Assembly: GCA_005792285.1 (NCBI GenBank)
Contig: SXSI01000020.1
Coordinates: 1,327 to 65,326, forward strand
Reading direction: 5' to 3'
From: Bacteroidota bacterium
GTDB taxonomy: Bacteria; Bacteroidota; Ignavibacteria; UBA10030; UBA8401
Length of the DNA stretch: 64,000 nt
Shown: piece by piece, positions 2,929 to 44,875 of the stretch
Layout of the letters: each line of letters starts with the position of its first letter
How positions within the stretch are numbered: position 1 is the first letter of the stretch
Position numbers and translations under genes: made by a program
The notes under the pieces: generated by a model
What the model saw: the letters and a program-made list of their open reading frames with translations, nothing else
Database searches by the model: none
Told to the model about the DNA's origin: nothing

Positions 2929-2947
2929 TTATTTAAGAATATTTTAT

Positions 2948-3997: not shown

Positions 3998-4002
3998 ACT
4001 TT

Positions 4003-7073: not shown

Positions 7074-7086
7074 TTATTAAATAGTT

Positions 7087-7629: not shown

Positions 7630-7691
7630 TTATTTTCACATGAGAGATTAAACTTTGAGTTGCTTCATTTTACTCGTATTTTCTTACCCTC

Positions 7692-8102
7692 ATGAAGAGT
7701 TGTTTAGGAAGTTGGCTTATAATAATTTTAATGGTTGTGTTTTTCGGTTGCGATTCAGGAGTTTCTCCGGAAGATCTCGAAAAGATAGATCCAAAATTTA
7801 CCGCATTACAAAGTAATATTTTCGATTTAAGTTGTTCTACTAAAAGTTGTCACGGTTCAGATGGTGCCGGGAATCTCTTTTTAACAAAGGATAAATCTTA
7901 TGCAGCTATGGTAAACATTCGAAGTTCTCTTGATTCAAAATATTATATAGTTAAACCGGGGAATGCTGATTCAAGTTATTTATATTTAAAACTTACAAAT
8001 CCCCCTTCAGGAGTTTTAATGCCAAAAGGAAATCCAAAATTATCTGATGCAAAAATTGCAGCAGTTAAGGAATGGATTAATAATGGCGCACTAAATAATT
8101 AA
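7692..8102 (+). CDS. Lipoprotein with a PSCyt1-like (planctomycete cytochrome c) domain carrying a variant CX4CH motif
   Basis: Lipobox (VVFFGC). The C-terminal about 90 aa fit the PSCyt1 pattern (Cx..CHG...GG.L.L......Y....G.SG..V.PG.P..S.L...I...........MP......LS..E...L..WI..GA), but the haem-binding site reads CSTKSCH rather than CxxCH. Confidence 0.45.
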   Translation: MKSCLGSWLIIILMVVFFGCDSGVSPEDLEKIDPKFTALQSNIFDLSCSTKSCHGSDGAGNLFLTKDKSYAAMVNIRSSLDSKYYIVKPGNADSSYLYLKLTNPPSGVLMPKGNPKLSDAKIAAVKEWINNGALNN

Positions 8103-8132
8103 TTATATTCACAATTTTTTTTCTATAATAAA

Positions 8133-9977
8133 ATGATAACGCAACAATTAATAAGAAATATAGCAATTATCGCACACGTTGACCATGGCAAAACTACTTT
8201 GGTTGATTACATGCTACGACAAACAGGAACATTTCGAGATAACCAACAAGTCGCAACTCGCATAATGGATTCAAACGATCAGGAGCGAGAAAGAGGAATT
8301 ACAATTCTTGCTAAAAATACTGCGGTTCATTATACAAGTCTGAAAGATAAAAATAAATATAAAATTAATATTGTTGATACACCAGGTCACTCTGATTTTG
8401 CCGGTGAAGTTGAACGAACTTTAAAAATGGTTGATGGCGTTTTGTTGCTTGTTGATGCTTCTGAAGGACCACTTCCGGGAACAAAATTTGTTCTTAAAAA
8501 ATCTCTTGATTTAAATTTGCAGCCAATTGTCGTTATAAATAAAATTGATCGAAAAGATGCACGACCACACGAAGTGTTAGATGAAGTTTTCGAACTATTT
8601 CTTTCGCTCGGGGCAAATGATAAACAACTCGACTTCCCAATTATTTATGCAATTTCAAAACTAGGCATTGCAAAAAATGAATTGGAAATGGAAAGCACTT
8701 CACTTGATCCTTTATTTGAGGCAATTATTTCAAAAGTACCTCATCCAATTGGCAATCCAAACGATCCATTTCAAATGTTAGTTACAACAATCGATTACAA
8801 TGATTATCTCGGCCGATTAGGAATTGGAAAAATTCATCGTGGTACAATACAACTTGGCGAACCGATGGAAGTAATTCACAAAGATGGTTCAATTGAAGAT
8901 GCTCGTGTTTCAAAATTATATTCCTTTGAAGGATTAAAAAGAATTGAAGTTGCAAAAGCGAGTGTTGGAGATATTATTGCACTCGCGGGAATGGAAGATG
9001 TTGATATCGGCGAAACAATTGCATCGGTCAAAGATCCAACTCCACTTCCATTTGTTGCAATTGAAGAACCAACAATGTCAATGAATTTTATAGTTAATAA
9101 TTCTCCATTTGCCGGACAAGAGGGAAAATACGTAACAACAAGAAATTTGTCGGAACGATTACAAAAAGAACTTCGATCGAACGTAAGTTTAAAAGTTGAA
9201 TTTACAGATTCTCCTGATGTGTTTAAAATTAGTGGGCGCGGCGAACTTCATCTTTCGGTTTTAATTGAAAATATGAGACGCGAAAATTATGAACTTCAAG
9301 TTTCAAGGCCAGAAGTTATTCTTAAAAGAATTGATGATGTGGTTTGTGAACCAATTGAACATATTATAATTGATGTTCCAGATGAACATAATGGAATTGT
9401 AATAGAAAATCTTGGCAAACGAAAAGCTGAAATGAAGAATATGATGTCCTCGCAAGGAAATACTCGACTCGAATTTTTAGTTCCAGCTCGCGGACTTATC
9501 GGTTTCAGAAATGAATTTATGACACAAACAAAAGGAACCGGAATTCTTCATCATAATTTTCATGGTTATGAACCTCATAAAGGAGAAATGCAACAAAGGA
9601 CAAGAGGAGCATTGATTGCAATGGAAGGTGGTGAAGCGGTTGCATATGGTATGTGGAAATTACAAGAACGATCAATATTTTTTATTGAACCAGGAGCTCG
9701 TATTTATTCTGGAATGATTGTTGGTGAAAATACACGTGAACATGATATGACGGTAAATGTTTGTAAAACAAAACAACTCACAAATATGCGCGCCTCCGGT
9801 TCCGATACTGCTGTTCGTCTTGAGCCACCACATTTATTAACACTTGAGCAAGCAATTGAATGGGTTGGTGATGATGAATATGTTGAAATTACCCCTTCTT
9901 CAATTAGATTACGAAAAAAATATTTAGAACATAATGAGCGGAATAGAGCTACAAAGAAAAAAGTTATAGATATATGA
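8133..9977 (+). CDS. typA: Translational GTPase TypA/BipA
   Basis: G1 motif AIIAHVDHGKTTLVD and DTPGHSDF; about 610 aa with EF-G-like domain organisation. Size and sequence are typical of BipA. Confidence 0.9.
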   Translation: MITQQLIRNIAIIAHVDHGKTTLVDYMLRQTGTFRDNQQVATRIMDSNDQERERGITILAKNTAVHYTSLKDKNKYKINIVDTPGHSDFAGEVERTLKMVDGVLLLVDASEGPLPGTKFVLKKSLDLNLQPIVVINKIDRKDARPHEVLDEVFELFLSLGANDKQLDFPIIYAISKLGIAKNELEMESTSLDPLFEAIISKVPHPIGNPNDPFQMLVTTIDYNDYLGRLGIGKIHRGTIQLGEPMEVIHKDGSIEDARVSKLYSFEGLKRIEVAKASVGDIIALAGMEDVDIGETIASVKDPTPLPFVAIEEPTMSMNFIVNNSPFAGQEGKYVTTRNLSERLQKELRSNVSLKVEFTDSPDVFKISGRGELHLSVLIENMRRENYELQVSRPEVILKRIDDVVCEPIEHIIIDVPDEHNGIVIENLGKRKAEMKNMMSSQGNTRLEFLVPARGLIGFRNEFMTQTKGTGILHHNFHGYEPHKGEMQQRTRGALIAMEGGEAVAYGMWKLQERSIFFIEPGARIYSGMIVGENTREHDMTVNVCKTKQLTNMRASGSDTAVRLEPPHLLTLEQAIEWVGDDEYVEITPSSIRLRKKYLEHNERNRATKKKVIDI

Positions 9978-32407: not shown

Positions 32408-32941
32408 TTAAAAATTTTTCCACATCATCGACTCGATTGGTTTTTTAGAGAGGTGGTTATATTTTGCATTTTTCTTTTTGTTATACGAAACCTCTACTTC
32501 TCCACTTACTTCAAAATAAATTAACTGGCCAATCGGCATCCCGGCATAAACACGAACAGGTTGCTTTACAGAAATTTCTAAAGTCCAGTAATTACAAAAA
32601 CCAACATCACCTTTCCCTGCGGTTGCGTGAATATCAATTCCTAATCTCCCGATTGAACTTTTCCCTTCTAAAAAAGGGACATGCTCATGTGTCTCAGTAT
32701 ATTCTTCTGTAACTCCGAGATATAACATATGTGGTTGAAGTATAAATCCATCTTTTGTAATTTGGAAGTGTTTAATCTTATTATGTTTTTTTGAATCCAA
32801 AATTTCATCTTTATAAACAGCTAAATTTTTTCCCAAATGAACATCGTAACTATTTGAGCCAAGAAATTTCCTATTAAATGGCGAAATAATAATTGTTCCT
32901 TTTTTTATTTCTGTTAATATTTGTTTATCTGTTAGAATCAT
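32408..32941 (-). CDS. dcd: dCTP deaminase
   Basis: MILTDKQILTEIKKGTIIISPFNRKFLGSNSYDVHLG... matches the Dcd/dUTPase-fold N-terminus; 177 aa. Confidence 0.85.
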   Translation of the reverse strand: MILTDKQILTEIKKGTIIISPFNRKFLGSNSYDVHLGKNLAVYKDEILDSKKHNKIKHFQITKDGFILQPHMLYLGVTEEYTETHEHVPFLEGKSSIGRLGIDIHATAGKGDVGFCNYWTLEISVKQPVRVYAGMPIGQLIYFEVSGEVEVSYNKKKNAKYNHLSKKPIESMMWKNF

Positions 32942-33078
32942 TTTTTAATTATTGTATTTAATTTACATTTTAACCAAAGTAGGAAAATATTTTTCGGTAT
33001 CTATGTTTTTTCTATTTTGGCTGACTCCTTCACCAAGTATTTATAAATGCTTTGTGAGGGATAGGTTCGTTTATACTT

Positions 33079-36000
33079 ATGGCTAAATCAATTTTATCAA
33101 CACTATCTCATTCTGAACAATTCAAGAAATTAACAGAAAATATACCTTCTGCTGAAAAGCCATTTACAATTTCGGGCGTTTGCGGTTCGCTTTGGGCTTT
33201 GATAACAGCGCAATTATTCAAAGAATTTCAACAAAAAATAATTGTAGTTTCTGCCGAAAGAGAATCTGCGGAAATAATTAGAGATGATCTTGCAACATTA
33301 GTTGGCTCTGCAAATGTTTTCTTTTCATCTTACGAACCAAAATTAGCAACCGAGTCGTTTGATATGACAGGCGAAATAAGTCAAATTGAATCTCTGCAAA
33401 AATTAATTTCTCCCAATCCAATAATAATTGTAACATACATTGCGGCGATTACTACAAAGGTTCCTGCTCCTGATTTAATAAAATCGAAAATGATTTCGAT
33501 ATATCGTGGTTCTGAATTACAATACGAAAACTTTATTTCAATATTAACAGAGAATGGTTTTACAAGAAAAAATTTTATTGAAACCTACGGCGATTTTGCA
33601 GTTCGTGGTGGGATAATTGATCTTTTTCCAATTACCGGCGAACATCCGTATCGGTTGGAATTTTGGGGAGATATGGTTGAGTCGATTCGTGAATTCGATA
33701 TTTTTTCGCAGAGATCAATCCGTGAAGTTGGTGAAATATTTATTCTTCCGAAATTCGAACCTTCATCATCAACGAGTACAATCTTCGATTACATTAACAA
33801 TGAAGCAATTATTTTTTACGATGATCCGATAAAACTTTCTAAGGAACTTGATGAACTTCAATCGGAAGGGATTCCAACCGATTTATCGATGAATGATTTT
33901 TTAAAATTAATTTTACAACAAAAAAGAATTGAACATAAAATTTTTAATACTTCAAATGTAGATATAAATTTTTCTGCCATTTCTCAACCGGCTTCTCATG
34001 GGAGTATGAAAACTTTAAATCATCAACTTGAGGAGTGTAATCGCAAAGGATTCGAAATCTGGATTTATTCCGAAACCAAAGAGGAATCAACTCGTCTTCA
34101 GGAATTATTAAATACAACTGATCTTGTTGAGGAAAATGAAAATTCAAATGAGCAATTAAAAAAATTTATTAATGAACTTCATTTTGTAACTGGCGAGTTC
34201 CATGAAGGATTTATTTATCCAAACTCGAATGTTGCTTTATTTACCGAACATCAAATTTTCGGCAGGATTAAACAGCATAAAAATCCGAAACGAAAACGAT
34301 TTAAAGGGATTTCGCAAAAAGAATTACACGTTTTAAAGGGTGGCGATTTTGTAGTTCATATTGATCATGGTATTGGTAAATATTTTGGAATGAAATATAT
34401 TTCTGTCGGTGGAAATCAACAGGAAGTTGTAAAATTAGAGTATGCAAATAGTGGGACTCTTTTTGTAAATGTTAATTTTATAAATCGCATTCAAAAATAT
34501 TCTTCTGCGGAAGGACATATTCCAACATTAAACACTCTCGGTGGAAAAGAGTGGGACAGAACTAAACAACGTGCTAAGAAAAAAATAAAAGATATTGCAC
34601 GCGATTTAATTAAACTTTATGCGTTAAGAAAAAATTCTACCGGATTTGCTTTTTCAGCCGATACGCCATGGCAAAAAGAAATGGAAGCTTCTTTTATGTA
34701 CGACGATACTCCAGATCAGGCAACTGCAACTTTATTTGTAAAACAGGATATGGAAAGTTCGAGTCCGATGGACAGATTAATTTGTGGAGATGTTGGATTT
34801 GGAAAAACTGAAGTTGCAGTTCGTGCTGCATTTAAATCTGTAATGAGCGGAAAACAAGTTGCAGTTCTTGTGCCAACTACAATACTGGCACGGCAACATG
34901 GCAATACATTTTTAGATCGGCTCGGAAGATATTCTACGCGGATCGAAGTTCTTTCCCGATTTCGTTCTGCAAAAGAAATTAAAAATGCAATTGCACAAAT
35001 TGCAATTGGGCAAGTTGATATTGTGATTGGAACTCATCGATTACTTTCCAAAGATATAAATTTTAAAGATCTCGGCTTACTTATAATAGATGAAGAACAA
35101 CGCTTCGGAGTTTCGGCAAAAGAAAAACTTCGTTCGTTAAAAAATTCTGTTGATACATTAACACTTACCGCAACACCAATTCCGAGAACTTTACAATTTT
35201 CATTAATGGGTTCGCGCGACTTGTCAATTATTTCAACTCCGCCACGAAATCGTTATCCAATTCATACAGAAATTGCCGTCTTTGATAAAACAATTATTCG
35301 CGAAGCAATAATTCGGGAAATTCATCGCGGTGGACAAGTTTATATTGTTCACGACCGAATTAGTTCGATTGAACAAATTGTTTCAATGATTCAGGATTTT
35401 GTTCCGGAGGCCAGATTTTGTGTTGCTCATGGACAAATGAATGCGCATAAATTGGAAAAAGTTATGATAGATTTTATGGAAAGAAAATATAACGTGCTTG
35501 TCTCTACAAAAATAATTGAATCGGGAATTGATATTCCGAGTGTGAATACAATAATAATTAATCGCGCAGATAGATTTGGAATGGCGGAATTATATCAACT
35601 TCGTGGTCGTGTTGGAAGAAGTAATATTCAGGCATATGCATATTTATTGATTCCTCCATTCGCTTCACTTTCAAAAGAAACTTTACGAAGATTACAAGCT
35701 GTTGAAGAATTTACAGAACTTGGCTCGGGATTTAATTTGGCGATGCGCGATCTTGAAATTAGAGGTGCAGGAAATTTACTTGGTTCGGAACAAAGTGGTT
35801 TCGTTGCTGATATGGGTTTTGAAATGTATCAGCGACTTGTTAATGAAGCTGTTGCAGAATTGAAAGATGAAGAATTTCAAGAAGTTAATTCAGATTCATC
35901 CAAAAAAGAAATTGATGCTGTTGTTGAAGTTGATGTTGATGCATTTATTTCAGATGAATATGTTACTGATAATTCAGAACGCTTGGATTTGTACAGAAGA

Positions 36001-36387
36001 ATTGCACGAACAAAAAATGAAAAAGAAATTGATCTGTTTTATGTTGAACTTCGCGACAGATTCGGCGAACTCCCGATTGAAACAAATAATCTTTTAATAG
36101 TCGCACGATTAAGATTACTGCTTTCAAATATTCAATTACAAAAATTAATTATCCGCGGAGATAATGCAACTTTTTATTTCCCCTCAAAAGAAAATGTTTC
36201 TTTTTACGAAGGTGGTTTTTTTCAAAAATTTATTGCTGTAATCCCTACTTTATCACATAAGTTATTTTTTAAGGAAGAAAACAAGAAATCAGTTTTATAT
36301 GGTAAAATTAAATCCGCCAGCAACGAAGAACGTTTGCAGCAAATAATATTTTTATTGAAAGATATTTCAGACAAAATTGAACTTTAA
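33079..36387 (+). CDS. mfd: Transcription-repair coupling factor
   Basis: 1102 aa. UvrB-homology N-terminal region, RNAP-interaction domain, superfamily-2 translocase motifs (GDVGFGKTEVAVRAAF, LIIDEEQRFGV, ...QLRGRVGRS) and a TRCF C-terminal domain. Confidence 0.92.
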   Translation: MAKSILSTLSHSEQFKKLTENIPSAEKPFTISGVCGSLWALITAQLFKEFQQKIIVVSAERESAEIIRDDLATLVGSANVFFSSYEPKLATESFDMTGEISQIESLQKLISPNPIIIVTYIAAITTKVPAPDLIKSKMISIYRGSELQYENFISILTENGFTRKNFIETYGDFAVRGGIIDLFPITGEHPYRLEFWGDMVESIREFDIFSQRSIREVGEIFILPKFEPSSSTSTIFDYINNEAIIFYDDPIKLSKELDELQSEGIPTDLSMNDFLKLILQQKRIEHKIFNTSNVDINFSAISQPASHGSMKTLNHQLEECNRKGFEIWIYSETKEESTRLQELLNTTDLVEENENSNEQLKKFINELHFVTGEFHEGFIYPNSNVALFTEHQIFGRIKQHKNPKRKRFKGISQKELHVLKGGDFVVHIDHGIGKYFGMKYISVGGNQQEVVKLEYANSGTLFVNVNFINRIQKYSSAEGHIPTLNTLGGKEWDRTKQRAKKKIKDIARDLIKLYALRKNSTGFAFSADTPWQKEMEASFMYDDTPDQATATLFVKQDMESSSPMDRLICGDVGFGKTEVAVRAAFKSVMSGKQVAVLVPTTILARQHGNTFLDRLGRYSTRIEVLSRFRSAKEIKNAIAQIAIGQVDIVIGTHRLLSKDINFKDLGLLIIDEEQRFGVSAKEKLRSLKNSVDTLTLTATPIPRTLQFSLMGSRDLSIISTPPRNRYPIHTEIAVFDKTIIREAIIREIHRGGQVYIVHDRISSIEQIVSMIQDFVPEARFCVAHGQMNAHKLEKVMIDFMERKYNVLVSTKIIESGIDIPSVNTIIINRADRFGMAELYQLRGRVGRSNIQAYAYLLIPPFASLSKETLRRLQAVEEFTELGSGFNLAMRDLEIRGAGNLLGSEQSGFVADMGFEMYQRLVNEAVAELKDEEFQEVNSDSSKKEIDAVVEVDVDAFISDEYVTDNSERLDLYRRIARTKNEKEIDLFYVELRDRFGELPIETNNLLIVARLRLLLSNIQLQKLIIRGDNATFYFPSKENVSFYEGGFFQKFIAVIPTLSHKLFFKEENKKSVLYGKIKSASNEERLQQIIFLLKDISDKIEL

Positions 36388-36411
36388 TCTTAATTATTGT
36401 AAATTATTTCT

Positions 36412-36675
36412 ATGAAAGAATTAATAACTTGGCTCTTCGGAATAAGCTTGTTGGTAAACGCTGGATTATTTATCCCTCAAATAATAAAAATATTGAAAAC
36501 CAAAAGTGCAAAAGATTTTTCTATTTTAACCTTTGGTGGATTTAATGTCCTGCAAATAGTAGGCATTTTGTACGGATACATCCAAAATGACTTTACCTTA
36601 ATGTGGGGTATGGTTGTAAGTTTAATTGCGTGCGGCTCGGTAACATTGCTCGCATTTATTTATCGCAAAAATTAA
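36412..36675 (+). CDS. PQ-loop / SemiSWEET-like small membrane transporter
   Basis: 87 aa with three predicted TM helices and a PQ motif in TM1 (LFIPQIIKILKTKSAKDFS). Size and topology match bacterial SemiSWEETs. Confidence 0.5.
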   Translation: MKELITWLFGISLLVNAGLFIPQIIKILKTKSAKDFSILTFGGFNVLQIVGILYGYIQNDFTLMWGMVVSLIACGSVTLLAFIYRKN

Positions 36676-37027
36676 TAGTGATAATGTTTGGAATAAAACT
36701 CACTTACTAAGTGGAAATTTATTTATATGGGCATCTTCCGTGATGCTTATTGGGATTTTCGTAGAACCTTTCTATTCTTTTATTTTAATTATTTCAAGCA
36801 TTTCGATTGTTCAATGTTCTTTTCCTGTAATACAAAAAATGGAACAGGCACGTTAATTGATTTTATACGAAAATGATAAATACCATACTTACAGTTGGTT
36901 AGACCCTGAAGGGGACTTGGAGTTCAAGCAATAGTTAAATATAAGTGGACAACGAAAAACGAGAAAATAGAGTTTTCTTTGCATCAGAAAACGAAGCTAT
37001 TAAAAACGACAATCGACATCGAAAACA

Positions 37028-37660
37028 TTGTTTGAAAACAGAATACAAAAAATGGATTTATTTAACAACAAAATAGACTTTTTAGAAAATTTATTACCTA
37101 AAGATGGTATAATAAATTATTACGGGAAGTTGCTGACAAACAAAGAAGCAAATCACTATTTCGACAGTTTAATGAAGACAATCGAATGGAAAAATGACCA
37201 GGCTATTATATACGGAAAACTGATAGTAACAAAACGAAAAGTAGCTTGGTATGGCGACACTAATTTTGAATACAAATATTCTAACACAACTAAACGAGCC
37301 TTAACTTGGACAACTGAATTATTAGATTTAAAATCAATCGTCCAAGAAAAAACAGGCGAAAAGTTTAATTCCTGTTTGCTTAACTTATACCACACTGGCG
37401 AAGAAGGAATGGCGTGGCATAGTGATGCTGAAAAAGTTTTAAAGAAAAATGGAGCAATTGGATCATTGAGTTTTGGGGCAGAACGCAAATTTGCATTCAA
37501 GCATAAAAAAACAAAAGAAACTATTTCATTAATTCTAGAACACGGAAGTTTATTGGTAATGAAAGATATTACACAAACGAATTGGCTACATCGACTTCCA
37601 CCGACAAAGCTCACCAACAAACCAAGAATAAACTTAACTTTTAGGACAATTGTTCTCTGA
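37028..37660 (+). CDS. alkB: Alpha-ketoglutarate/Fe(II)-dependent dioxygenase AlkB (alkylated DNA/RNA repair)
   Basis: 2OG-Fe(II) oxygenase facial triad HxD...H (WHSDAE...HGSLLVM) and the R..L(N)LTFR C-terminal 2OG-binding motif (RINLTFRTI). About 210 aa. Confidence 0.8.
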   Translation: MFENRIQKMDLFNNKIDFLENLLPKDGIINYYGKLLTNKEANHYFDSLMKTIEWKNDQAIIYGKLIVTKRKVAWYGDTNFEYKYSNTTKRALTWTTELLDLKSIVQEKTGEKFNSCLLNLYHTGEEGMAWHSDAEKVLKKNGAIGSLSFGAERKFAFKHKKTKETISLILEHGSLLVMKDITQTNWLHRLPPTKLTNKPRINLTFRTIVL

Positions 37661-37983
37661 ATTGCACGTCAACCGAGGAAGAAAATCAGCCCATAACACG
37701 TGCTTGGCAAAGATGAGAAATAAAAAAAATGAAACTCTTAAAGTTATGCAAAACAATAATAAACAGAAAAATTATAACCAAAAAAATTGACTAATTACTC
37801 CATCGTCCCTCAATTGATAGTTGCTTTATCAATAGCACATGTCTGGATATTTCGTTTTGATAATATCGTAAAAGAATTTACCAAATATGATTTGAATAAC
37901 TTAACTCCTAATTCAGTGGGAAGCCGGGCAAATATTTACATATTGACGGAGGAATGTATATTTTCAAAACCTCACAAAATTAC

Positions 37984-38700
37984 ATGACCGATACTTTCTT
38001 ATCAGCCCGTTGGGAAAATTTGATTATGGCAAACTATGCCATTGATCCTGAAATATTAAAACCATATTTGCCTAAAGGTGTTGAATTGGATTTTTACGAT
38101 GATAAAACATATGTTAGTCTTGTTGGTTTTATGTTTAAAAAAACAAGCCTGTTCCATATACCCATTCCGTTTTTAGGAACCTTTGAAGAAATCAATCTGC
38201 GTTTTTATGTAAAAAGAATTGAAGGAAATTCCATAAAAAGAGGTGTGGTATTTATCAACGAAACTGTTCCCTATAAAGCCGTAGCCTGGCTTGCCAATAA
38301 ATTATATAAAGAACATTACATCGCTATTCCTACAAAAAATAAAATAGCTATTACCAATAGTTCAAAGAAGATAAAGTATGAATGGAAAATAAAAAATGAA
38401 TGGAATCATATTGCAGTAAATACCGGTGTGGAAAAAGAACAAATGCAACTTGGCAGTATAGAAGAATTCATTTTTGAACATTACTACGGGTACACTAAAG
38501 TCAACAATCAACATTCACAAGAATACAAAGTGAACCATCCAAGGTGGCAGGTGAATAAAGTGCTTGACTATGAAATTAATTGCAACTTTGAGGCAATGTA
38601 TGGTGCTGACTTTTCTTTTTTAAAAAATGTACAAGCAAAATCGGTTATTGTTGCTGAGGGCTCACCTATTACTGTAAATTGGAGACGAATTTCATTTTAA
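37984..38700 (+). CDS. DUF2071-like (YqjF-like) conserved hypothetical protein
   Basis: ...FLSARWENLIMANYAIDPEILKPYLPKGVELD... fits the N-terminal W.NL.M.NY...P..L...LP.G.ELD pattern I associate with DUF2071. The ORF-track start at 37954 is possible; the Met at 37984 matches family starts better. Confidence 0.45.
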   Translation: MTDTFLSARWENLIMANYAIDPEILKPYLPKGVELDFYDDKTYVSLVGFMFKKTSLFHIPIPFLGTFEEINLRFYVKRIEGNSIKRGVVFINETVPYKAVAWLANKLYKEHYIAIPTKNKIAITNSSKKIKYEWKIKNEWNHIAVNTGVEKEQMQLGSIEEFIFEHYYGYTKVNNQHSQEYKVNHPRWQVNKVLDYEINCNFEAMYGADFSFLKNVQAKSVIVAEGSPITVNWRRISF

Positions 38701-38709
38701 AAATTCAAT

Positions 38710-38982
38710 TTGATGGAACAAAAAGATATTGACAGAATCATTGAAATGGCATGGGAAGACAGAACACCTTTTGAAGCCATAAAAATACAATTTGATTTTT
38801 CAGAAGCAGATGTAATTGCACTTATGCGAAGAGAATTAAAGCACAGCAGTTTTAATTTATGGCGAAAGAGAGTAAACAGTGGTGTTAGCCAAAAGCATGC
38901 ACAAAAAAGAAATCCTAAGATAGAACGTTTTAAATCCAGCTTGCAAAAATCCATTTCTATGAATAAAATTAGCAAGTGGTAA
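38710..38982 (+). CDS. TIGR03643/DUF2805-like small protein (usual partner of CRY-DASH photolyase genes)
   Basis: MAWEDRTPFEAIKIQFDFSEADVIALMRRELKHSSFNLWRKRV... matches the conserved core of that family as I recall it. It ends 1 nt before the photolyase-family gene. Confidence 0.55.
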   Translation: MMEQKDIDRIIEMAWEDRTPFEAIKIQFDFSEADVIALMRRELKHSSFNLWRKRVNSGVSQKHAQKRNPKIERFKSSLQKSISMNKISKW

Positions 38983-38983
38983 A

Positions 38984-40084
38984 ATGAAAGCCAATTTTGC
39001 AAGTGATTACAAAACTATTCTCCAAAAAATTGATCAAGTTAATCCGGTTCAGTATGGCAAAACCAGGAATTATCTTAATGGAGCAGTTACCTATTTATCA
39101 CCCTACATATCACGAGGTGTTATCAGTACCAAACAGGTGCTTAACCAGATGTTAGTAAAGGGATTTGAATTGCATCAGATAGAACAATTTGCAAAGGAGT
39201 TATGCTGGCGGGATTATTTTCAGAGAGTAGGACAACATAAAGATTTACACAAAGATATCCGACAACAACAGCAAAGAGTGTCGAATAATGAATTGCCTAT
39301 TCAGGTTTTAAATGCAAGCATAGGAATTGAAGGAATTGATAACGCCATTCAACAATTATACGACACCGGATACATGCACAATCACTGCAGAATGTATACA
39401 GCTTCGTTAGTATGTAATATTGCCCAATCACATTGGTATAAGCCCGCGCAATGGATGTATTACTACTTGCTTGATGGAGATTGGGCTAGTAACTATTGCA
39501 GTTGGCAATGGGTAGCAGGCACCAATAGCAGTAAAAAATATTATGCCAATCAGGAAAACATCAACAAGTTCACTGCAACCAATCAATCTAACACCTACCT
39601 CGATAAACCATATGAATTTTTGGAAACAATGGATACCCCTACTCCATTATTGACCACTCAAAATTTTGAACCTAAAATAAATTTGCCTGTAGCTTCAGCA
39701 ATAAACATAAATGAGGCACTGCCAGCTTTTATTTACAATTACTATAATCTCGATCCGCTTTGGCATAAAGATGAACAAGGCAACAGAATTTTATTGATTG
39801 AACCCGATTTTTTTTCAAAATATCCAGTAAGTAAAACCTGTATAGAATTTATGCTGGCATTGAGCAAAAATATTCCTGGCATACAAGTATTTGTTGGTTC
39901 TTTTCAATCCTTTGCCAACAGGTACAACTTAAGAACTATTTATTACAAAGAACATCCACTTAATATCGGCTACATAGGAAATGAAGAACCAAGGGAATGG
40001 ATTGCCGAAAATGTTACGGAATACTATCCATCATTTTTTGGATATTGGAAAAAAGTAGAGAAGCAATTAAACACATTTAAATAA
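38984..40084 (+). CDS. Photolyase/cryptochrome-superfamily protein with inverted domain order (NewPHL-like): FAD-binding domain N-terminal, alpha/beta domain C-terminal
   Basis: The N-terminal 200 aa carry the photolyase FAD-binding-domain signatures (TYLSPYISRGVIS; ELCWRDYFQ; DTGYMHNHCRMYTASLVCN...WYKPAQWMYYYLLDGDWASNYCSWQWVAGTNSS). The C-terminal about 150 aa (NRILLIEPDFF...FMLALSKNIPGIQVFVGSF...YKEHPLN) fit the pattern of the photolyase N-terminal alpha/beta domain. No room exists upstream for a canonical N-domain. Confidence 0.6.
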   Translation: MKANFASDYKTILQKIDQVNPVQYGKTRNYLNGAVTYLSPYISRGVISTKQVLNQMLVKGFELHQIEQFAKELCWRDYFQRVGQHKDLHKDIRQQQQRVSNNELPIQVLNASIGIEGIDNAIQQLYDTGYMHNHCRMYTASLVCNIAQSHWYKPAQWMYYYLLDGDWASNYCSWQWVAGTNSSKKYYANQENINKFTATNQSNTYLDKPYEFLETMDTPTPLLTTQNFEPKINLPVASAININEALPAFIYNYYNLDPLWHKDEQGNRILLIEPDFFSKYPVSKTCIEFMLALSKNIPGIQVFVGSFQSFANRYNLRTIYYKEHPLNIGYIGNEEPREWIAENVTEYYPSFFGYWKKVEKQLNTFK

Positions 40085-40088
40085 ACAA

Positions 40089-40697
40089 ATGCTAATTCGT
40101 AAAAAAGAAATAGAACAATTAGAGCAGCGTTATAGAACAGCATTTATCAACTCATTAGCAGGTTTTAGACAAGCGGTATTGGTAGGAACTAAATCAATTG
40201 ACGGAAATAACAATTTAGCTATCTTTAATTCACTTATTCATTTAGGCGCTAATCCAGCATTATTTGGTTTAATAAACCGACCTGATAGCGTGCAGAGAGA
40301 TACACTCCAAAATATATTAGATACCAAAGAGTATACCCTAAATTTTGTGAATGCTGAAGCTTACAAAAAAGCACATCAAACTTCGGCTAGGTATGAGAAA
40401 GGAGTTTCTGAATTTGAAAAAGTTGGCTTAACGCCTCAATATCAGGAAGCTTGTAGTGCTCCATTTGTAGGAGAAGCTGTGGTAAAAATCGCAATGAAAT
40501 TAGAAGAAATAATTCCAATAAAAATTAACGGAACGATACTTATTGTGGGTAGTATTATGGAGGTAAATTTAAGTGATGAACTTGTTGGCGATGATGGATT
40601 TGTAAATTTATCTGCAGCGGATGTTTTAATTAGTCAGGGATTAGACGCCTATTATACTTCCAACCCGATTGGCCGATTGCCATATGCAAAACCATAA
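40089..40697 (+). CDS. Flavin reductase-like (FMN-binding split-barrel) protein
   Basis: 202 aa. ...AFINSLAGFRQAVLVGTKS...NLAIFNSL... resembles the PF01613 flavin-reductase core. 4-nt gap from the upstream gene. Confidence 0.6.
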   Translation: MLIRKKEIEQLEQRYRTAFINSLAGFRQAVLVGTKSIDGNNNLAIFNSLIHLGANPALFGLINRPDSVQRDTLQNILDTKEYTLNFVNAEAYKKAHQTSARYEKGVSEFEKVGLTPQYQEACSAPFVGEAVVKIAMKLEEIIPIKINGTILIVGSIMEVNLSDELVGDDGFVNLSAADVLISQGLDAYYTSNPIGRLPYAKP

Positions 40698-40726
40698 ACG
40701 AATAAATAAACTCCTCTTCCTTAACA

Positions 40727-40876
40727 ATGAAAAAGATTAAAAAAGAATTTTTACCTCAAAAGATTTGTGTAGTTTGTAAAAGATCTTTTAGCTGGCGTAA
40801 AAAATGGGAAAAGGTTTGGGATGAAGTAAAATATTGTAGTGATAAATGTAGAATGAATAAAAAACAACATGAGTAA
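40727..40876 (+). CDS. DUF2256 zinc-ribbon small protein (49 aa), unannotated in the ORF track
   Basis: [49 protein letters not shown]. The CxxC...WRKKW...YCSxxCR pattern is characteristic of DUF2256, a family that co-occurs with photolyase genes. Confidence 0.6.
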
Positions 40877-41561
40877 AACAGGTATTGTATTTCCACATCA
40901 ATTGTTTGAGCAAAATATTTTGGCATCAACATGCAATACGATATATCTGATAGAAGAGTGGCTCTACTTCAGGCAATATAATTTTCACAAAAGGAAAATT
41001 GCCTTTCATAGATCCAGTATGAAGTTTTATGAAAGTTATTTACAGTCAAAAAAAATAAAAGTAGTATACATTGATGCATTTAATGAATCTATTTTAAAAG
41101 CTACTGGGAAATATTGGGAAAAATGGTTTTCTATAATTTTAAAAGTCGGCGGTAAAAAACTTTCTCGCCAGGAAATAGTTTTAGTTCTACATAAATATTT
41201 AAAGGGGACAGGTTGGTGGGAACAGATGATTACTGTTCAATTCGATAAAAAATATAAGAATAGAGCTTTATATCAATCTGGTAAAACTTTTAAAGTTTCT
41301 ATCAGCAAAGTATTTAATTTTCCAATCGAAAGAGTTTTTGATAGCTGGATAAATAAACCAGTAATTTCAAAATGGCTTACAAATAAAAGTTTTACTATTC
41401 GAAAATCAACTTCCCAAAAATCACTTCGGTTAATTTGGGTTGATTATAAAACATTCGTAGATGTTGACTTTTATGTAAAAGCAAAGGGGAAACAACTGTC
41501 GTTGTGCAATTTTCAAAACTACCTTCTGCAGATGAATGTGAAAAGAAAAAGGTGTTTATGA
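40869..41561 (+). CDS. Chimeric ORF: N-terminal remnant of a COG3046 (FeS-BCP / 6-4-photolyase-related) gene fused in-frame to an SRPBCC-domain protein (likely start of the intact part at M120, nt 41226)
   Basis: Residues 1-75 ([11 protein letters not shown]...[34 protein letters not shown]...[10 protein letters not shown]) match the N-terminal alpha/beta domain of the COG3046 family as I recall it (LVL.LGDQL...HKKKIAF..SAMRHF...YR.RY.R.DD). From MITVQ... onward ([26 protein letters not shown]...) it reads as an SRPBCC/AHSA1-like domain. No FAD-binding domain follows. Confidence 0.4.
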
Positions 41562-41605
41562 AACGAGCAAACTATAAATTAGAAAAGTTGCTTTCAAAAT
41601 AAAAT

Positions 41606-42196
41606 ATGATAACTCGAAATCAAGCTATAGAACTTCTTCATTCAAAAATGAGCAGTGTTAATTTACGCCGACATTGTTATGCAGTTGAAACTTCAATGCG
41701 AGCACTTTATAATACTTTGGAAGTTCCATCGCTTGGATATAATTCTGAAAGAGAAGAAGTTTGGGCAATCACTGGATTGTTACATGATGGTGATTATGAA
41801 TTTGTACAAAAAGATTTAACTCGCCACACTCATCAAATTGTTGAATGGCTAATTCCACTTGGTGCTTCAGAAGAAATAACTCATGCAATACTTTCCCATG
41901 GTTGGCAATATATCGATGGAAATCCTGAACCATCAACATTACTTGAATGGTCTTTATATTGTTGCGATGAATTAACAGGATTAATTGTTGCAGTTGCGCT
42001 TGTCAAGCCTGATAAAAAATTGAATTCGGTAACTTTAGAGTCTGTCCAAAATAAATGGAATGCAAAAGGATTTGCTGCCGGCGCGAAAAGATCGCAAATA
42101 GAATTGTGTGAAGAGAAGTTAAAAATTCCACTTCGTGATTTTATTGCAATCGTACTTCAGTCAATGCAAAAAATATCCAGCGATATTGGTTTGTAG
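41606..42196 (+). CDS. HD-domain phosphohydrolase
   Basis: H...HD metal-binding motif (RRHCYAVETSMRALY ... ITGLLHDGDYE) and a later D (CCDELTG); 196 aa. Confidence 0.6.
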   Translation: MITRNQAIELLHSKMSSVNLRRHCYAVETSMRALYNTLEVPSLGYNSEREEVWAITGLLHDGDYEFVQKDLTRHTHQIVEWLIPLGASEEITHAILSHGWQYIDGNPEPSTLLEWSLYCCDELTGLIVAVALVKPDKKLNSVTLESVQNKWNAKGFAAGAKRSQIELCEEKLKIPLRDFIAIVLQSMQKISSDIGL

Positions 42197-42298
42197 TTTT
42201 GCAAACAGCTCTATTTTGTTGTTACTAAAATAATTTTGATATATTTTCTTTTCTATTATAATTCTAAATAATCATAAACTACAATTAAGGAGTATTTA

Positions 42299-44155
42299 AT
42301 GAAAAAGTTATTATTTATAATTTGTCTCTCTTCTGTAACAATTCTTTATTCACAACAGTTTGACGTTAAACAACATTACAATAAAAAAGAATTTATGATT
42401 ACGATGAGGGATGGAGTAAAACTTTTTACTTCTGTTTATACTCCAAAAGATTCAACTCAACAATTTCCCATAATGTTTAATCGAACACCATATAGCGTTG
42501 CGCCTTACGGTGAAGATAAATATCGCGGAATGGTTGGTCCAACACAATTATTTGCAGATGAAAAATATATTTTTGTTCATCAAGATGTACGTGGTCGATA
42601 TATGTCTGAAGGTGATTTTGAAATGATGCGCGCACAAAAGAAAAATAAAACTTCTAAAAATGATATTGATGAAAGTTCCGATACTTACGATGCGATTGAT
42701 TGGTTGGTTAAAAATATTCCAAACAATAATGGTAAAGTTGGTATGTGGGGAATTTCTTTTCCTGGTTTTTATTCCGCTGTTGGGACTTTAAGCAATCATC
42801 CCGCTTTAATTGCAACTTCTCCGCAAGCACCAATGAACGACACTTATCTTGGTGATGACTTTCATCATAATGGTGTGTTTTTTCTTCCACATGCATTTGG
42901 ATTTTTGAATGGATTTAAAAGAGAAAGAAGTGGACCAACTCAACAATACAAACCTGGAATTCAATTTGGAACTGAAGATGGATATAAATTTTTTCTTGAA
43001 ATGGGTGCACTGAAAAATGCAAATAAAAAATATTTTCACGACTCGTTATCAATTTGGAATGAACAGATGGCACATGGCAATTATGATGATTATTGGAAAA
43101 GCCAAAATGTTGCAGCACACTTTAATAATTTTAAACCGGTGACTATGATTGTTGGCGGTTGGTACGATTCAGAAGATTTGTACGGTCCATTAAAACTTTA
43201 TGAAGCTGGCGAAAAATCTGTTCCACAAAATACCTATATAGTAATGGGACCTTGGACGCATGGTGGTTGGGCAAGAAGTAATGGCGATACGCTCGGAGAT
43301 ATTCGATGGGAACAAAAAGCTTCTTTGTGGTTTAGAGAAAATATTGAACTTCCATTCTTCAATTATTATTTAAAAGGAAAAGGAACAAACCCTCTTGCGG
43401 AAGCAACTATTTTTGAAACTGGTGGTTACAAGTGGCATAGGTTTAATGAATATCCTCCTGCAAATAGTAAATCAGAAAATTTTTATTTGCAATCTGATGG
43501 CTCAATTTCAAAAACAGCTTCAAAAAATAAAAATTCTTTTTCTGAATATGTTAATGATCCAAATAAGCCGGTCCCATTTACTCAAGATATTTCAATTAGT
43601 ATGGGAACCTTATACAAAGTTGAAGATCAGAGATTTGCTTCGCGTCGACCGGATGTAATTACTTTTCAAACAGAAATATTAAACGATGAATTAACTTTTG
43701 TGGGAGCAATTACTGCACATATTTCCGGTTCAACAAGTGGAACAGATTGCGATTGGGTCGTAAAAGTTATTGATGTTTATCCCGATTCTGCAAAAGATAC
43801 AAAACCAAATCCGAGAAAAGCTAAAATGAGCGGATATCAACAACTTGTACGCGCTGAAATTATGCGTTCAAAATATCGCGATGGAAATTGGTCAAATCCA
43901 AAAGCTATGATTCCAAATAAAATCACCAAAGTTGAATTTGAGTTGCAAGATATAATGCACACATTCAAACGTGGTCACAGACTAATGATTCAAATACAAA
44001 GTAGTTGGTTCCCGATTGCAGATAGAAACCCCGGTAAGTTTTTAGATATTTATAATGCTGATGATAGTGATTTTCAGAAAACCACTCAACGAGTTTATCA
44101 TTCAACAGAAAATCAAACGTACATTTCTGTGCGTACAATGAAGTTAGATAAATAA
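42299..44155 (+). CDS. Secreted S15-family peptidase / CocE-NonD family hydrolase (Xaa-Pro dipeptidyl-peptidase-like)
   Basis: Signal peptide. Alpha/beta-hydrolase part with a GxSxxG nucleophile elbow (VGMWGISFPGFYSA). Large C-terminal beta-sandwich typical of the CocE/NonD family. 618 aa. Confidence 0.6.
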   Translation: MKKLLFIICLSSVTILYSQQFDVKQHYNKKEFMITMRDGVKLFTSVYTPKDSTQQFPIMFNRTPYSVAPYGEDKYRGMVGPTQLFADEKYIFVHQDVRGRYMSEGDFEMMRAQKKNKTSKNDIDESSDTYDAIDWLVKNIPNNNGKVGMWGISFPGFYSAVGTLSNHPALIATSPQAPMNDTYLGDDFHHNGVFFLPHAFGFLNGFKRERSGPTQQYKPGIQFGTEDGYKFFLEMGALKNANKKYFHDSLSIWNEQMAHGNYDDYWKSQNVAAHFNNFKPVTMIVGGWYDSEDLYGPLKLYEAGEKSVPQNTYIVMGPWTHGGWARSNGDTLGDIRWEQKASLWFRENIELPFFNYYLKGKGTNPLAEATIFETGGYKWHRFNEYPPANSKSENFYLQSDGSISKTASKNKNSFSEYVNDPNKPVPFTQDISISMGTLYKVEDQRFASRRPDVITFQTEILNDELTFVGAITAHISGSTSGTDCDWVVKVIDVYPDSAKDTKPNPRKAKMSGYQQLVRAEIMRSKYRDGNWSNPKAMIPNKITKVEFELQDIMHTFKRGHRLMIQIQSSWFPIADRNPGKFLDIYNADDSDFQKTTQRVYHSTENQTYISVRTMKLDK

Positions 44156-44173
44156 ATATTTTTTAATTTGGAA

Positions 44174-44875
44174 CTATTTTTTATTCCGCCAACTGCGAAA
44201 TGTTACTTCGCCATGTGGCATGTCTCCTTCCGGGATATGAAAACTTTCTTTCATCTCTTTCCAGAATCCCGGATTGTACTTCATATTAATTAATGCAATA
44301 ATAATCATTGTAAGAACCGCACCCCCTCCAGCGAGTAACATATCTTTTTGCGAATCCCAAATATCTCCCTGACTTCCAAGAAATGCAATCCCGGCAGATG
44401 GTTCTGCAATTGAAGCAACTAACCACTCAATAATTTCAAACAAAGCGGAAAGAGAAAGTGTGAGATCCAAAGGAAGATAATAAGCCCAAATTCCTTTTAC
44501 GGTTGCAAGACGGACAAAAACTTCTCGAACTGGATATGCGAGTAAAAATCCAAATAAAAAATGGACGAGGCGATCGTACATATTTCTATTTGAGCCGAAC
44601 CAAGCTTGTAATGTGTAACCAAATGGAACTTCGGCATAAGTGTAATGAGAACCGACAACATGGAGTATCATAAAAATTGTTATTAACGTGTAAGAAGAAT
44701 TTGAAAAACGAAAATATTTTCCCGTTAGCAAAATAATTGGAGTAAAAATAAAAACAAGATAATTTTCTAACAACCAATCTCCAGGATGTTTGGGATTTAT
44801 TGCCGCCCATAACCAAACTCCAAGAAATGAATAAAGTAATATTTGCTGATAGACGGATGGAATATATTTTTTCAT
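44174..44875 (-). CDS. Inner-membrane protein, possibly DUF2238 (YjdF-like)
   Basis: 233 aa, 5-6 TM helices, conserved-looking HVVGSHYTYAEVPFG segment; family assignment from memory only. Confidence 0.35.
   Translation of the reverse strand: MKKYIPSVYQQILLYSFLGVWLWAAINPKHPGDWLLENYLVFIFTPIILLTGKYFRFSNSSYTLITIFMILHVVGSHYTYAEVPFGYTLQAWFGSNRNMYDRLVHFLFGFLLAYPVREVFVRLATVKGIWAYYLPLDLTLSLSALFEIIEWLVASIAEPSAGIAFLGSQGDIWDSQKDMLLAGGGAVLTMIIIALINMKYNPGFWKEMKESFHIPEGDMPHGEVTFRSWRNKK

Follow-up and report, generated by a model that had tools for sequence, protein, structure and literature searches.

In the 64-kb window, by which we mean the whole stretch of DNA analysed here, positions 36816–41080 very probably constitute a horizontally acquired, strain-variable islet that carries a compacted Bacteroidota photolyase operon and was inserted by illegitimate recombination. 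The islet, a feature without strand, measures 4265 bp and stands in place of 90 bp of the island-less allele. We regard it as a clean yet fairly ordinary case of gene-cluster transfer, in which one photolyase would have been lost and one host gene broken.

Occupied and empty alleles of the locus

The boundaries of the islet and its presence/absence polymorphism can be read directly from a conspecific contig, L089. When this contig is compared to the window by blastn, its positions 1–3904 match 32918–36815 at 98.6% identity and its positions 3995–7790 match 41081–44875 at 99.0%, and between these roughly 99% identical flanks there are 90 bp at the site where the window has 4265 bp. Its genes run in the order Mfd, PQ-loop, P0121, HD and PepS15. 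A genus-level outgroup, L099, whose Mfd is 70% identical, keeps Mfd, PQ, X, HD, PepS15, DUF2238 and DUF5916, with no photolyase genes at the corresponding locus, and L097 is island-less at the same spot; the evidence for the island-less allele consists of the single 7.8-kb Logan contig (L089) and the outgroup. Because only 90 bp are found between 99%-identical flanks, and because the block is absent from the outgroup, we consider the islet to be acquired and strain-variable, which agrees with the suspicion of an acquired segment in the original prediction. Synteny is in line with this, as the gene order recurs in Bacteroidota and the block is absent from both L089 and L099. Composition had also been proposed as a mark of foreign origin, but the region is not set apart from its flanks: GC is 0.331 in the islet and 0.321 elsewhere, GC3 is only slightly higher, and neither measure gives a signal that separates the islet from the rest. 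The unusually long non-coding stretches previously thought to fit such an origin do exist, but they are not empty, as 36676–37051 contains the left junction and 37661–37983 a truncated DoxX_2 gene.

Junctions and the truncated photolyase

The left junction (36811–36816, no strand) is the end of host identity, 136–141 nt downstream of the stop of the PQ-loop gene, where the sequence is ...GATTGTT|GCAATTATTTCC in the host and ...GATTGTT|CAATGTTCTTTTCC in the window. The right junction (41081–41088, no strand) is an 8-nt microhomology, TAATGAAT, that is common to donor-type photolyase genes and the host gene and makes an in-frame fusion of the two; relatives read ...GATGCATT[C/T]AATGAATTAGCC and the host L089 ...AGTAATGAATCTATT, and DNA homology to the photolyase genes of about ten relatives ends at 41077–41080.

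On the islet side of this junction is the 5′ part of a gene for a photolyase of the DPRP family (FeS-BCP/CryPro-type), some 70–73 codons at 40869–41088 on the plus strand. It is a remnant, since only positions 2–83 of the 224 in the PF04244 profile are covered; it is 81% identical to residues 1–73 of the 491-aa protein of L022, and relatives encode this protein intact, with DPRP and FAD_binding_7 domains. The loss of the partner photolyase was not a gradual decay but a truncation at the insertion junction, so that the degradation suggested earlier holds as far as the truncation itself goes. The name FeS-BCP given to it is probably a misnomer, judging from L022, the one protein inspected: it has no cysteines beyond residue 375, and the four-Cys [4Fe-4S] motif, whose positions we take to be those of PhrB and CryB, is therefore seemingly absent.

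On the host side, the plus-strand homologue of P0121 (41081–41602) now lacks its promoter and its initial 8 codons. The intact P0121, of 181 aa, is weakly DUF4287/AHSA1-like (E=0.02 for DUF4287 and 0.054 for AHSA1, neither reaching the cut-off), so of the photolyase N-domain remnant fused to SRPBCC that had been predicted, the remnant stands while the SRPBCC label is weakly supported by these scores. In the fused gene, one nucleotide missing from an A5 run (41477–41480) causes a frameshift; the annotated open reading frame ends at 41561, the ancestral stop would fall at 41600–41602, and three loci carry a nonsense allele, Q183*. Gene 7 thus reads as a decaying chimera, not as a designed fusion.

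We propose that the islet entered an Ignavibacteria-like host (a class taken from the submitters' MAG labels) by illegitimate recombination, at a site flanked by the PQ-loop gene and a small gene of the host, with the right crossover at TAATGAAT. The insertion would have displaced 90 bp of host DNA comprising the promoter and first 8 codons of that gene, severed the arriving DPRP photolyase gene about 70 codons from its start and joined it in frame to the host gene, which would have decayed later, by a frameshift that is shared and a nonsense allele present in some strains.

It might be objected that the islet is an assembly chimera, a Chitinophagaceae fragment joined into an Ignavibacteria contig, given that every sequence comes from a MAG or a metagenome contig and that samples of these kinds often contain Chitinophagaceae whose cluster is 80% similar. 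We find this scarcely credible: host sequence flanks the insert on both sides, the same junctions are recovered in at least nine assemblies from several samples and runs and from different pipelines (ENA, NCBI and Logan), the two coding sequences are fused in frame at a microhomology, and strain-level SNPs are present within the islet, among them a 12-SNP patch at 38098–38184 in the DUF2071 gene.

The cluster could also be ancestral at this site, lost by L089, L097 and the outgroup, with a separate deletion of most of the DPRP gene in the window lineage. The locus is indeed a hotspot of rearrangement, for which strains with an identical HD protein show three alleles, the GC of the islet is like that of the host, and pseudogene remnants inside it suggest residence for some time. 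Nevertheless, this history is improbable, as it needs at least three independent events (the window deletion and two losses, one in the lineage of L099 and a precise one in L089), and the loss in L089 must restore an intact P0121 including its own start and upstream region. A single insertion would be expected to give just such a junction, in frame at a microhomology and leading from the donor-type photolyase sequence to host codon 9. The phylogenetic signals also diverge, with the NewPHL photolyase placed in a Chitinophagaceae-dominated clade and host Mfd at most 55% identical outside the genus.

Transfer from a Bacteroidota lineage, the reading we prefer, is consistent with these identities. 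Host Mfd has just two relatives at 70–72% identity, all others being at or below 55%. NewPHL is 81% identical to that of L098 and 78% to that of a Lacibacter MAG, and a neighbour-joining tree places it inside the Chitinophagaceae-dominated clade. The islet DNA is 80% identical to L007 over 3 kb; we infer the donor lineage from such comparisons, in which the best DNA match is only 80–83%.

A conserved core gene cluster

The core gene order, DUF2071, TIGR03643, NewPHL, flavin reductase, DUF2256 and DPRP-type photolyase, recurs in dozens of Bacteroidota genomes, with same-strand neighbours at fixed offsets (80 genomes). At the informative loci of these 80 genomes, the same-strand, tightly spaced neighbours of NewPHL include TIGR03643 in 68%, flavin reductase in 68%, DUF2071, on the upstream side, in 46% and DUF2256 in 45%, which upholds the earlier view of TIGR03643 and DUF2256 as companions in photolyase operons. 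The intact islet genes all point the same way and are separated by 9, 1, 4 and 29 nt, with one overlap of 8 nt, a layout that suggests a tight, co-transcribed operon.

Domain matches confirm the earlier assignments of AlkB (2OG/Fe(II)), DUF2071, TIGR03643, the inverted photolyase, the flavin reductase and DUF2256; the starts of the first three were corrected to 37052, 37984 and 38713, respectively, using alignment to relatives and the gene calls. All core genes lie on the plus strand. The first encodes a DUF2071 protein of 238 aa (37984–38700; PF09844, E=3.9e-51), followed by a small protein of 89 aa (38713–38982) that ends 1 nt before the NewPHL start and scores 108.2 bits against the NCBIfam cut-off of 66.55 for TIGR03643, while also matching DUF2805 (PF10985). 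Downstream of NewPHL, DUF2256 is a four-Cys zinc-ribbon protein of 49 aa (40727–40876; PF10013, E=1.5e-21). These three are conserved accessory proteins. The flavin reductase, a split-barrel protein of 202 aa (40089–40697; PF01613 Flavin_Reduct, E=1.7e-15; PDB ID: 3fge, E=2.6e-60), starts 4 nt past the NewPHL stop, and on a plasmid of Vibrio pelagius an orthologous flavin reductase is found together with TIGR03643 and a canonical photolyase. We speculate that it serves the flavin of the photolyase, which it would either reduce or provide in reduced form. We found no published description of NewPHL with this arrangement of companions; full-text searches gave no paper on TIGR03643, and the few that name DUF2256 or DUF2805 are unrelated to photolyase clusters.

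The NewPHL photolyase

[quoted passage not shown] Residues E72, W75, N133, M137, W151, N170, W174 and W176 correspond in the alignment to catalytic residues of class I and are invariant in 75 homologues, except for M137 (at least 90%). A Ruegeria protein that has the GFF motif, and whose numbering is that of DsNewPHL with an offset of 2, shares 31% identity with it. Architecture and catalytic residues support membership of the NewPHL group, though AlphaFold modelled the catalytic domain poorly and a fold search gave no significant match. No other photolyase is present within the 64-kb window, and the proposal that NewPHL replaced a CRY-DASH finds no corresponding event in this lineage, NewPHL being the resident member of the operon throughout the clade. 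By analogy with two proteobacterial NewPHLs shown to cleave cyclobutane pyrimidine dimers (CPDs), preferentially in single-stranded DNA (PMC7736829), the protein would most likely use blue or near-UV light and FADH- to split CPDs with the same preference.

Genes at the edges of the islet

The original prediction saw one light- and DNA-damage island of nine plus-strand genes in 37028–42196, where we count eight open reading frames. It is very unlikely that eight or nine genes, starting with AlkB and ending with the HD hydrolase, form one co-regulated island whose members are all linked in function to light or to the repair of lesions, even though the genes are all co-directional and closely spaced, and AlkB, NewPHL and the nearby Mfd are all DNA-repair proteins. 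ALKBH3-type enzymes favour single-stranded substrates. The preference of NewPHL (PMC7736829) is the same, which is another point for a joint function. The HD-superfamily hydrolase (196 aa; 41606–42196, plus strand) is a host gene outside the islet, and both it and the SRPBCC-like gene remain at the locus, the former beside PepS15, in L089, L097 and L099, which have no photolyase genes there; the adjacency of Mfd is an accident of the insertion site, and gene 7 is the chimera described above. Across 80 NewPHL loci, an HD-like protein is nearby in none and AlkB in two (L034 and L036, 5–7 kb upstream, 70–72% identity). Taken by itself, the protein of the window does not pass as an HD protein (Pfam HD, E=0.19); the assignment holds at the level of its family, with PF01966 found in 25 of 30 relatives and the family profile matching YqeK-type HD hydrolases in the PDB.

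AlkB (202 aa; 37052–37660, plus strand) lies inside the insert, yet is not a conserved partner of the cluster. It is an ALKBH2/3-like Fe(II)/2OG dioxygenase (PF13532 2OG-FeII_Oxy_2, E=4.8e-33), with ALKBH3 and ALKBH2 as best PDB matches (E about 1e-30), and its predicted role, the removal of alkyl lesions, would be independent of the photolyase genes. Next to it is the remnant of a DoxX_2 gene (37720–37924, plus strand), comprising the upstream region and codons 1–46 of about 114, with TTG replacing ATG; by tblastn it matches an L061 protein, itself a PF13564 match, at 65% identity over 46 aa (E=1e-16), and DNA homology covers 37720–37905 at 76.6%. This left part, AlkB and the DoxX remnant, could have a history separate from that of the core.

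Comparison with known systems

Like islets made by illegitimate recombination, the one in the window shows presence/absence between 99%-identical strains and microhomology at a junction. A likeness to IS-bounded composite transposons is seen in L098, the closest relative for NewPHL, whose cluster lies between two 100%-identical IS copies of 1749 bp with 21-bp terminal inverted repeats, whereas at the islet in the window we found no IS, integrase, transposase, tRNA target or flanking direct repeats.

FeS-BCP/CryPro (6-4) photolyases such as Agrobacterium tumefaciens PhrB and Rhodobacter sphaeroides CryB have the N-terminal DPRP domain (PF04244) matched by the remnant, but the window keeps only about 70 codons and the full-length relative in L022 apparently lacks the four-Cys [4Fe-4S] motif. 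With the AlkB/ALKBH2/ALKBH3 demethylases, AlkB of the window shares the 2OG-FeII_Oxy_2 fold and readable HxD...H and R..R motifs, though it differs from E. coli-type AlkB in scoring 27.7 bits against the NCBIfam equivalog cut-off of 267 bits.

The NewPHL photolyases of Emmerich et al. (2020, NAR; PMC7736829), DsNewPHL (UniProt A8LJA9) and MmNewPHL, resemble the window protein in having no N-terminal antenna domain, with the FAD/catalytic domain first, a C-terminal domain of about 165 aa that is predicted alpha/beta, conserved active-site residues for CPD repair, and conserved proximal and medial tryptophans with none aligning with the classical distal one. Both the window protein and a roseobacterial NewPHL-type protein carry the signatures HNH.RM and ASN.CSW.WVAG. 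The window protein differs in that identity over the catalytic domain is only about 31%, its Z domain is not alignable by BLASTP, and its C-terminal motif is SFF.YW, not GFF. A second photolyase accompanies NewPHL in 96% of species (PMC7736829), as in relatives of the window protein; in the window genome it is truncated.

The gene neighbourhood of NewPHL is not treated in that study, and the closest parallel to the arrangement seen here is with photolyase/cryptochrome clusters of Bacteroidota and Proteobacteria, where the same small companions, TIGR03643 and DUF2256, adjoin photolyase-family genes. In the window, however, neither CRY-DASH nor a class I photolyase but NewPHL is the central enzyme; DUF2071 and the split-barrel flavin reductase are regular members of the NewPHL version.

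An island-free allele of the locus

Gene 7 is a fused ORF, and a word-indexed search with its C-terminal part returned only two near-identical proteins and no family. In this way we found P0121, an intact host protein of 181 aa that is 93% identical to the non-photolyase part of gene 7, on the contig L089. The gene order of L089 (Mfd, PQ-loop, P0121, HD, PepS15, DUF2238) is that of the window flanks without any photolyase gene. By blastn, L089 1-3904 corresponds to window 32918-36815 at 98.6% identity and L089 3995-7790 to window 41081-44875 at 99.0%, leaving 4265 bp in the window (36816-41080), here termed the islet, where L089 has a 90-bp segment made up of the upstream region and the first eight codons of P0121. 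A more distant, genus-level relative (contig L099; Mfd 70% identical) carries Mfd, PQ, SdpI-like, HD, PepS15, DUF2238, DUF5916, AP endonuclease and AnmK, with no photolyase genes at the same locus. With L099 as outgroup, L089 establishes a presence/absence polymorphism between close strains, and the acquisition suspected in the original prediction is borne out by the lack of photolyase genes between the ~99%-identical flanks of L089, and likewise in L099.

A third allele of the site (L097:1-1457) was found in strains whose HD protein is identical; its breakpoint is at window 41460. Of the P0121-like gene only the 3' end is left, and a PhzF-family gene and an 80-aa chimeric ORF stand upstream of it instead. 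As L089 and L099 are island-less and L097 represents a third allele, the site is variable and the island-free state ancestral, and the interval between the PQ-loop and HD genes is a hotspot for rearrangement. Elsewhere on L099 (2923-6138), a few kb upstream of the Mfd region, lie carotenoid genes (phytoene desaturase-like, Caroten_synth, Lycopene_cyc), where the retrieved loci of the window's population have different genes.

The unit had been drawn as nine consecutive plus-strand genes for photoreactivation and DNA damage at 37028-42196. We count eight plus-strand ORFs in this interval, and the unit is wrong at both ends as well as in its logic: the host owns the HD gene and the SRPBCC-like piece, and AlkB is a passenger, not a conserved partner.

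Junctions and the truncated photolyase

At the right junction, three sequences can be compared: ...ATTGATGCATT[C/T]AATGAATTAGCC... in the photolyase genes of relatives, ...AGTAATGAATCTATT... in the host gene and ...ATTGATGCATTTAATGAATCTATT... in the window. This three-way reading places a crossover in the shared TAATGAAT at 41081-41088, with both genes left in frame. About ten relatives share DNA homology with the islet up to 41077-41080, and no flanking direct or inverted repeats were found at the islet ends. Further in, a 15-nt exact direct repeat (AATACAAAAAATGGA) is present at 36829-36843, 14 nt inside the left junction, and at 37042-37056, over the start codon and ribosome-binding region of AlkB; chance in AT-rich DNA or an earlier rearrangement could account for it. 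The left junction also cuts an open frame with hydrophobic, TM-like sequence that directly follows the stop of the PQ-loop (SemiSWEET-like) gene (window 36677-36850; L089:3766-3963). In L089 this frame reads ...LFIWASSVMLIGIFVEPFYSFILIISSISIVAIISVVYSYLFFLKEKNSALK*, and it was called by no gene caller.

The photolyase gene at the right junction survives in a 230-aa ORF, which matches the N-terminal domain of DPRP (FeS-BCP/CryPro) over its first ~85 residues only. The match covers positions 2-83 of the 224 in the profile, the full two-domain protein of ~500 aa being absent, and homology to the photolyase genes of relatives stops at 41080-41088. In those relatives the gene is intact (491 aa, DPRP plus FAD_binding_7) and matches the window ORF over only its first ~30%. 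The remnant had been taken for a degraded FeS-BCP; it is instead a truncation at the junction, and its source family is probably one without an Fe-S cluster. In the one full-length relative inspected (a 491-aa DPRP protein, L022:11881-13356, from a contig carrying the NewPHL cluster), cysteines occur only at positions 22, 110, 359 and 375, such that the four-Cys [4Fe-4S] motif of FeS-BCPs is apparently absent there, and the corresponding region is missing in the window. The DPRP partner in L022 may thus belong to an Fe-S-free subgroup.

The fused host gene has decayed since. Compared to L089, every island-bearing strain has lost one nucleotide from an A5 run at 41477-41480, which shifts the frame of the gene, and Q183* is added in three of nine loci. 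The window itself is identical to none of the retrieved assemblies (L001-L005 and L090-L095, including GCA_005778925.1 contig SXLK01000008.1), differing from them at 15-24 positions over about 12.6-14 kb. Within DUF2071, window 38098-38184 holds twelve SNPs in 87 bp against six other island-bearing assemblies, both synonymous and non-synonymous, compared to 0-1.4 differences per kb in the flanking host genes; this cluster resembles a short tract brought in by recombination from a diverged islet allele.

Gene content of the region

The gene families originally named are mostly supported by Pfam and NCBIfam matches. Both assignments on which the island idea leaned hold: TIGR03643 scores 108.2 bits against an NCBIfam curated cut-off of 66.55 (the same protein also matches DUF2805), and DUF2256 scores 76.6 bits against a Pfam gathering threshold of 25, with a CxxC...CxxxC pattern readable as a four-Cys ribbon. 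The Flavin_Reduct and DUF2071 domains are matched in Pfam by their respective ORFs, and for DUF2071 no PDB relative was found by sequence. Comparison with relatives revised the starts of AlkB, DUF2071 and TIGR03643 to 37052, 37984 and 38713, respectively. The AlkB-type protein matches Pfam 2OG-FeII_Oxy_2, has human ALKBH3 and ALKBH2 as its nearest solved structures, and lies far below the NCBIfam equivalog cut-offs for E. coli-type AlkB (27.7 versus 267 bits and 24.3 versus 231 bits); it is a member of the wider 2OG-FeII_Oxy_2 / ALKBH2-3 group. Upstream of it we considered a remnant of an Ada-type zinc domain at 36865-37076 ('ENRVFFASENEAIKN..RKHC'), and rejected it: Pfam gave no match even at E<=1-10, and no such ORF precedes the AlkB homologues on two contigs of relatives (L034 and L036).

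The two long stretches described as non-coding are not empty: 36676-37051 contains the left junction of the islet, and 37661-37983 a DoxX_2 remnant (E=1e-16), in which the upstream region is followed by codons 1-46. Scans of the region for tRNAs and Rfam families found nothing, and a scan for sigma-70 promoters and terminators, of a type unsuited to Bacteroidota-type promoters, gave fewer sites than shuffled sequence.

The HD gene at 41606-42196 could be assigned only through its family. The protein alone has no Pfam match (HD E=0.19). A search of 1.84 billion representatives gave 1611 relatives, of which 30 were aligned; 25 of these match PF01966, and the family profile matches YqeK-type hydrolases in the PDB (PDB IDs: 8jja; 2ogi). 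H23, H60, D61 and H98 are invariant in the alignment and D121 is conserved in at least 90% of members. By these sequence criteria the family clearly belongs to the HD superfamily, with the H...HD...D metal motif present.

A conserved gene cluster in Bacteroidota

A scan of one genome per species gave 572 NewPHL loci, from which the best 80 were kept; most are from Chitinophagaceae, Sphingobacteriales and Flavobacteriales, and one is from a MAG with the label Ignavibacteria. In these 80, tblastn and ORF clustering place the core genes on the same strand and at fixed offsets from NewPHL. Counting only those of the best 80 loci long enough to be informative, TIGR03643 (at about -270 nt) and the flavin reductase (at about +1100 nt) are each present in 68%, a DPRP-type photolyase downstream in 67%, DUF2071 (at about -1000 nt) in 46% and DUF2256 downstream in 45%. 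An SDR, one or two DoxX_2 genes, an amine oxidase and a second, class-I-like photolyase also occur nearby, less regularly. An HD-like gene is found in none of the best 80 loci, and AlkB in two, 5-7 kb upstream. We found no papers on TIGR03643, nor on DUF2256 together with photolyase; the papers that we found on DUF2256 alone, on DUF2805 and on photolyase with flavin reductase do not describe the NewPHL cluster.

Two of the retrieved loci have further features. In a Chitinophagaceae MAG (L061, about 6400-8200), rhodopsin-like and Blh-like (beta-carotene dioxygenase) genes, labels read off the sequence by eye, lie between the DoxX genes and DUF2071 at offsets of -3575 to -1827 from NewPHL. On a 268-kb plasmid of the Cytophagales bacterium Chondrinema litorale (L101, NZ_CP111049.1, 5530-9592), a NewPHL homologue of 50% identity lies between an SDR and a DPRP-type cryptochrome/photolyase gene, whose product is 60% identical to the L022 protein.

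Origin and possible vehicle

The host, labelled 'Ignavibacteria bacterium' or 'Bacteroidota bacterium' by the MAG submitters, has an Mfd with two relatives at 70-72% identity and all others at or below 55%. NewPHL has thousands of relatives, hundreds of them at 62-82% identity, and the window protein is 81% identical to that of L098 and 78% to that of a Lacibacter MAG. By neighbour joining it is nested among Lacibacter, Ferruginibacter and other Chitinophagaceae, and this tree, read with taxon labels from MAG submitters, indicates that the islet is phylogenetically incongruent with the host genes. At the DNA level, the islet is 80% identical over 3 kb to L007, another contig with the cluster. 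Composition is not atypical (GC 0.331 in the islet versus 0.321 elsewhere); GC, GC3 and skew give no useful signal of foreign origin, as the nearest relatives are equally AT-rich.

A possible vehicle is seen in L098 (7825-16520), which carries the cluster closest to that of the window and where TIGR03643, NewPHL, flavin reductase, an amine oxidase and a 491-aa DPRP photolyase lie between two direct, 100% identical IS copies of 1749 bp, with 21-bp terminal inverted repeats and DDE_Tnp_1/DUF772 ORFs. It resembles a composite transposon with photolyases as cargo, which could plausibly have served for the transfer. Such IS flanking of the cluster was found only in L098; in the window islet, no IS, integrase, tRNA or flanking repeats were found.

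The photolyase is a predicted NewPHL

[quoted passage not shown] Further marks of the group are a cluster of its own in a sequence-similarity network (E<1e-70), FAD binding and light-dependent CPD repair in single-stranded DNA. In the 366-aa window protein, PF03441 covers residues 69-194, and Pfam gives no match to the N-terminal alpha/beta antenna domain (PF00875). Residues 24-185 align to 227-400 of a class I photolyase (PDB ID: 1tez), placing E72, W75, N133, M137, W151, N170, W174 and W176 on catalytic or electron-transfer positions; across 75 homologues all eight are invariant except M137 (at least 90%). The proximal and medial tryptophans are kept (W174 and W151), and no tryptophan aligns in the region of the distal one.

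The Z domain (residues about 200-366) is conserved in the 75 homologues. With these sequences, AlphaFold modelled residues 240-366 as alternating strands and helices at pLDDT 83-96 and the catalytic core poorly; Foldseek gave no significant match to the model. DsNewPHL was represented by a 410-aa protein from the megaplasmid of Ruegeria TM1040, which follows the published numbering with a constant offset of 2. The window protein is 31% identical to it (E=2e-25). E72, W75, N133 and W176, invariant in two alignments (A1 and A3), correspond to E83, W86, N153 and W196 in the Ruegeria protein and to E283, W286, N349 and W392 in 1tez; the active-site residues of DsNewPHL are E81, W84, N151 and W194 (PMC7736829). 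The Z domain of NewPHLs has a conserved GFF motif and one conserved tryptophan (PMC7736829). The Ruegeria protein carries the motif (AGFFKVKK), and in the equivalent position the window protein has a similar, not identical, C-terminal motif, S350-F351-F352-G-Y354-W355 (SFF.YW). We file the window photolyase as a divergent NewPHL of a Bacteroidota type, with predicted activity.

Proposed function

The surviving islet genes are separated by gaps of 9, 1, 4 and 29 nt, then an 8-nt overlap, and run in the same direction as the surrounding host genes; given this tight packing and shared direction they are likely to be co-transcribed. By analogy with the two enzymes studied in PMC7736829, NewPHL would use light to repair CPDs, preferentially in single-stranded DNA, and the partner that would act on other lesions or double-stranded DNA has been lost. 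No other photolyases were found within the 64-kb window, the only surviving one being an enzyme expected to act on single-stranded DNA.

The flavin reductase, a split-barrel protein like 3FGE (PDB ID: 3fge; E=2.6e-60), starts 4 nt after NewPHL. A similar arrangement is found on a plasmid of Vibrio pelagius (L104, p_1, NZ_CP090616.1, 2760-6663), where a TIGR03643 gene and a canonical 493-aa photolyase are accompanied by an orthologue of the flavin reductase, immediately downstream of the photolyase and 47% identical to that of the window. Photolyase and this flavin reductase are therefore linked beyond NewPHL, and outside Bacteroidota as well; three other gammaproteobacterial loci that we checked have no nearby photolyase. 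From synteny, we consider it a tentative and rather unlikely reading that the reductase is a dedicated photolyase partner, which would keep the flavin as FADH- without light or deliver reduced flavin. We know of no cellular reductant identified for the photolyase flavin, and if the reading is true the enzyme would be a candidate for it. NewPHL could need such help because its tryptophan chain is incomplete and its photoreduction weak (PMC7736829).

Comparison with known systems

Each component of the islet is of a known family, and it is nothing unusual for a small repair operon to be transferred. The window shows with unusual clarity how a photoreactivation operon has passed between distant lineages: we have both alleles, can place the junctions at base level, with crossover on microhomology, and can see the damage to the host gene. 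The value of the locus lies in this clean two-allele junction, in the conserved operon context of NewPHL and in the flavin reductase lead. NewPHL, described in 2020 without genomic context, is now placed in a conserved Bacteroidota operon whose members (flavin reductase, DUF2071, TIGR03643, DUF2256 and the DPRP-type photolyase) are concrete candidates for partners, the flavin reductase being the most obvious. The window NewPHL and the Ruegeria protein have in common the signatures HNH.RM and ASN.CSW.WVAG, whereas class I enzymes are without them.
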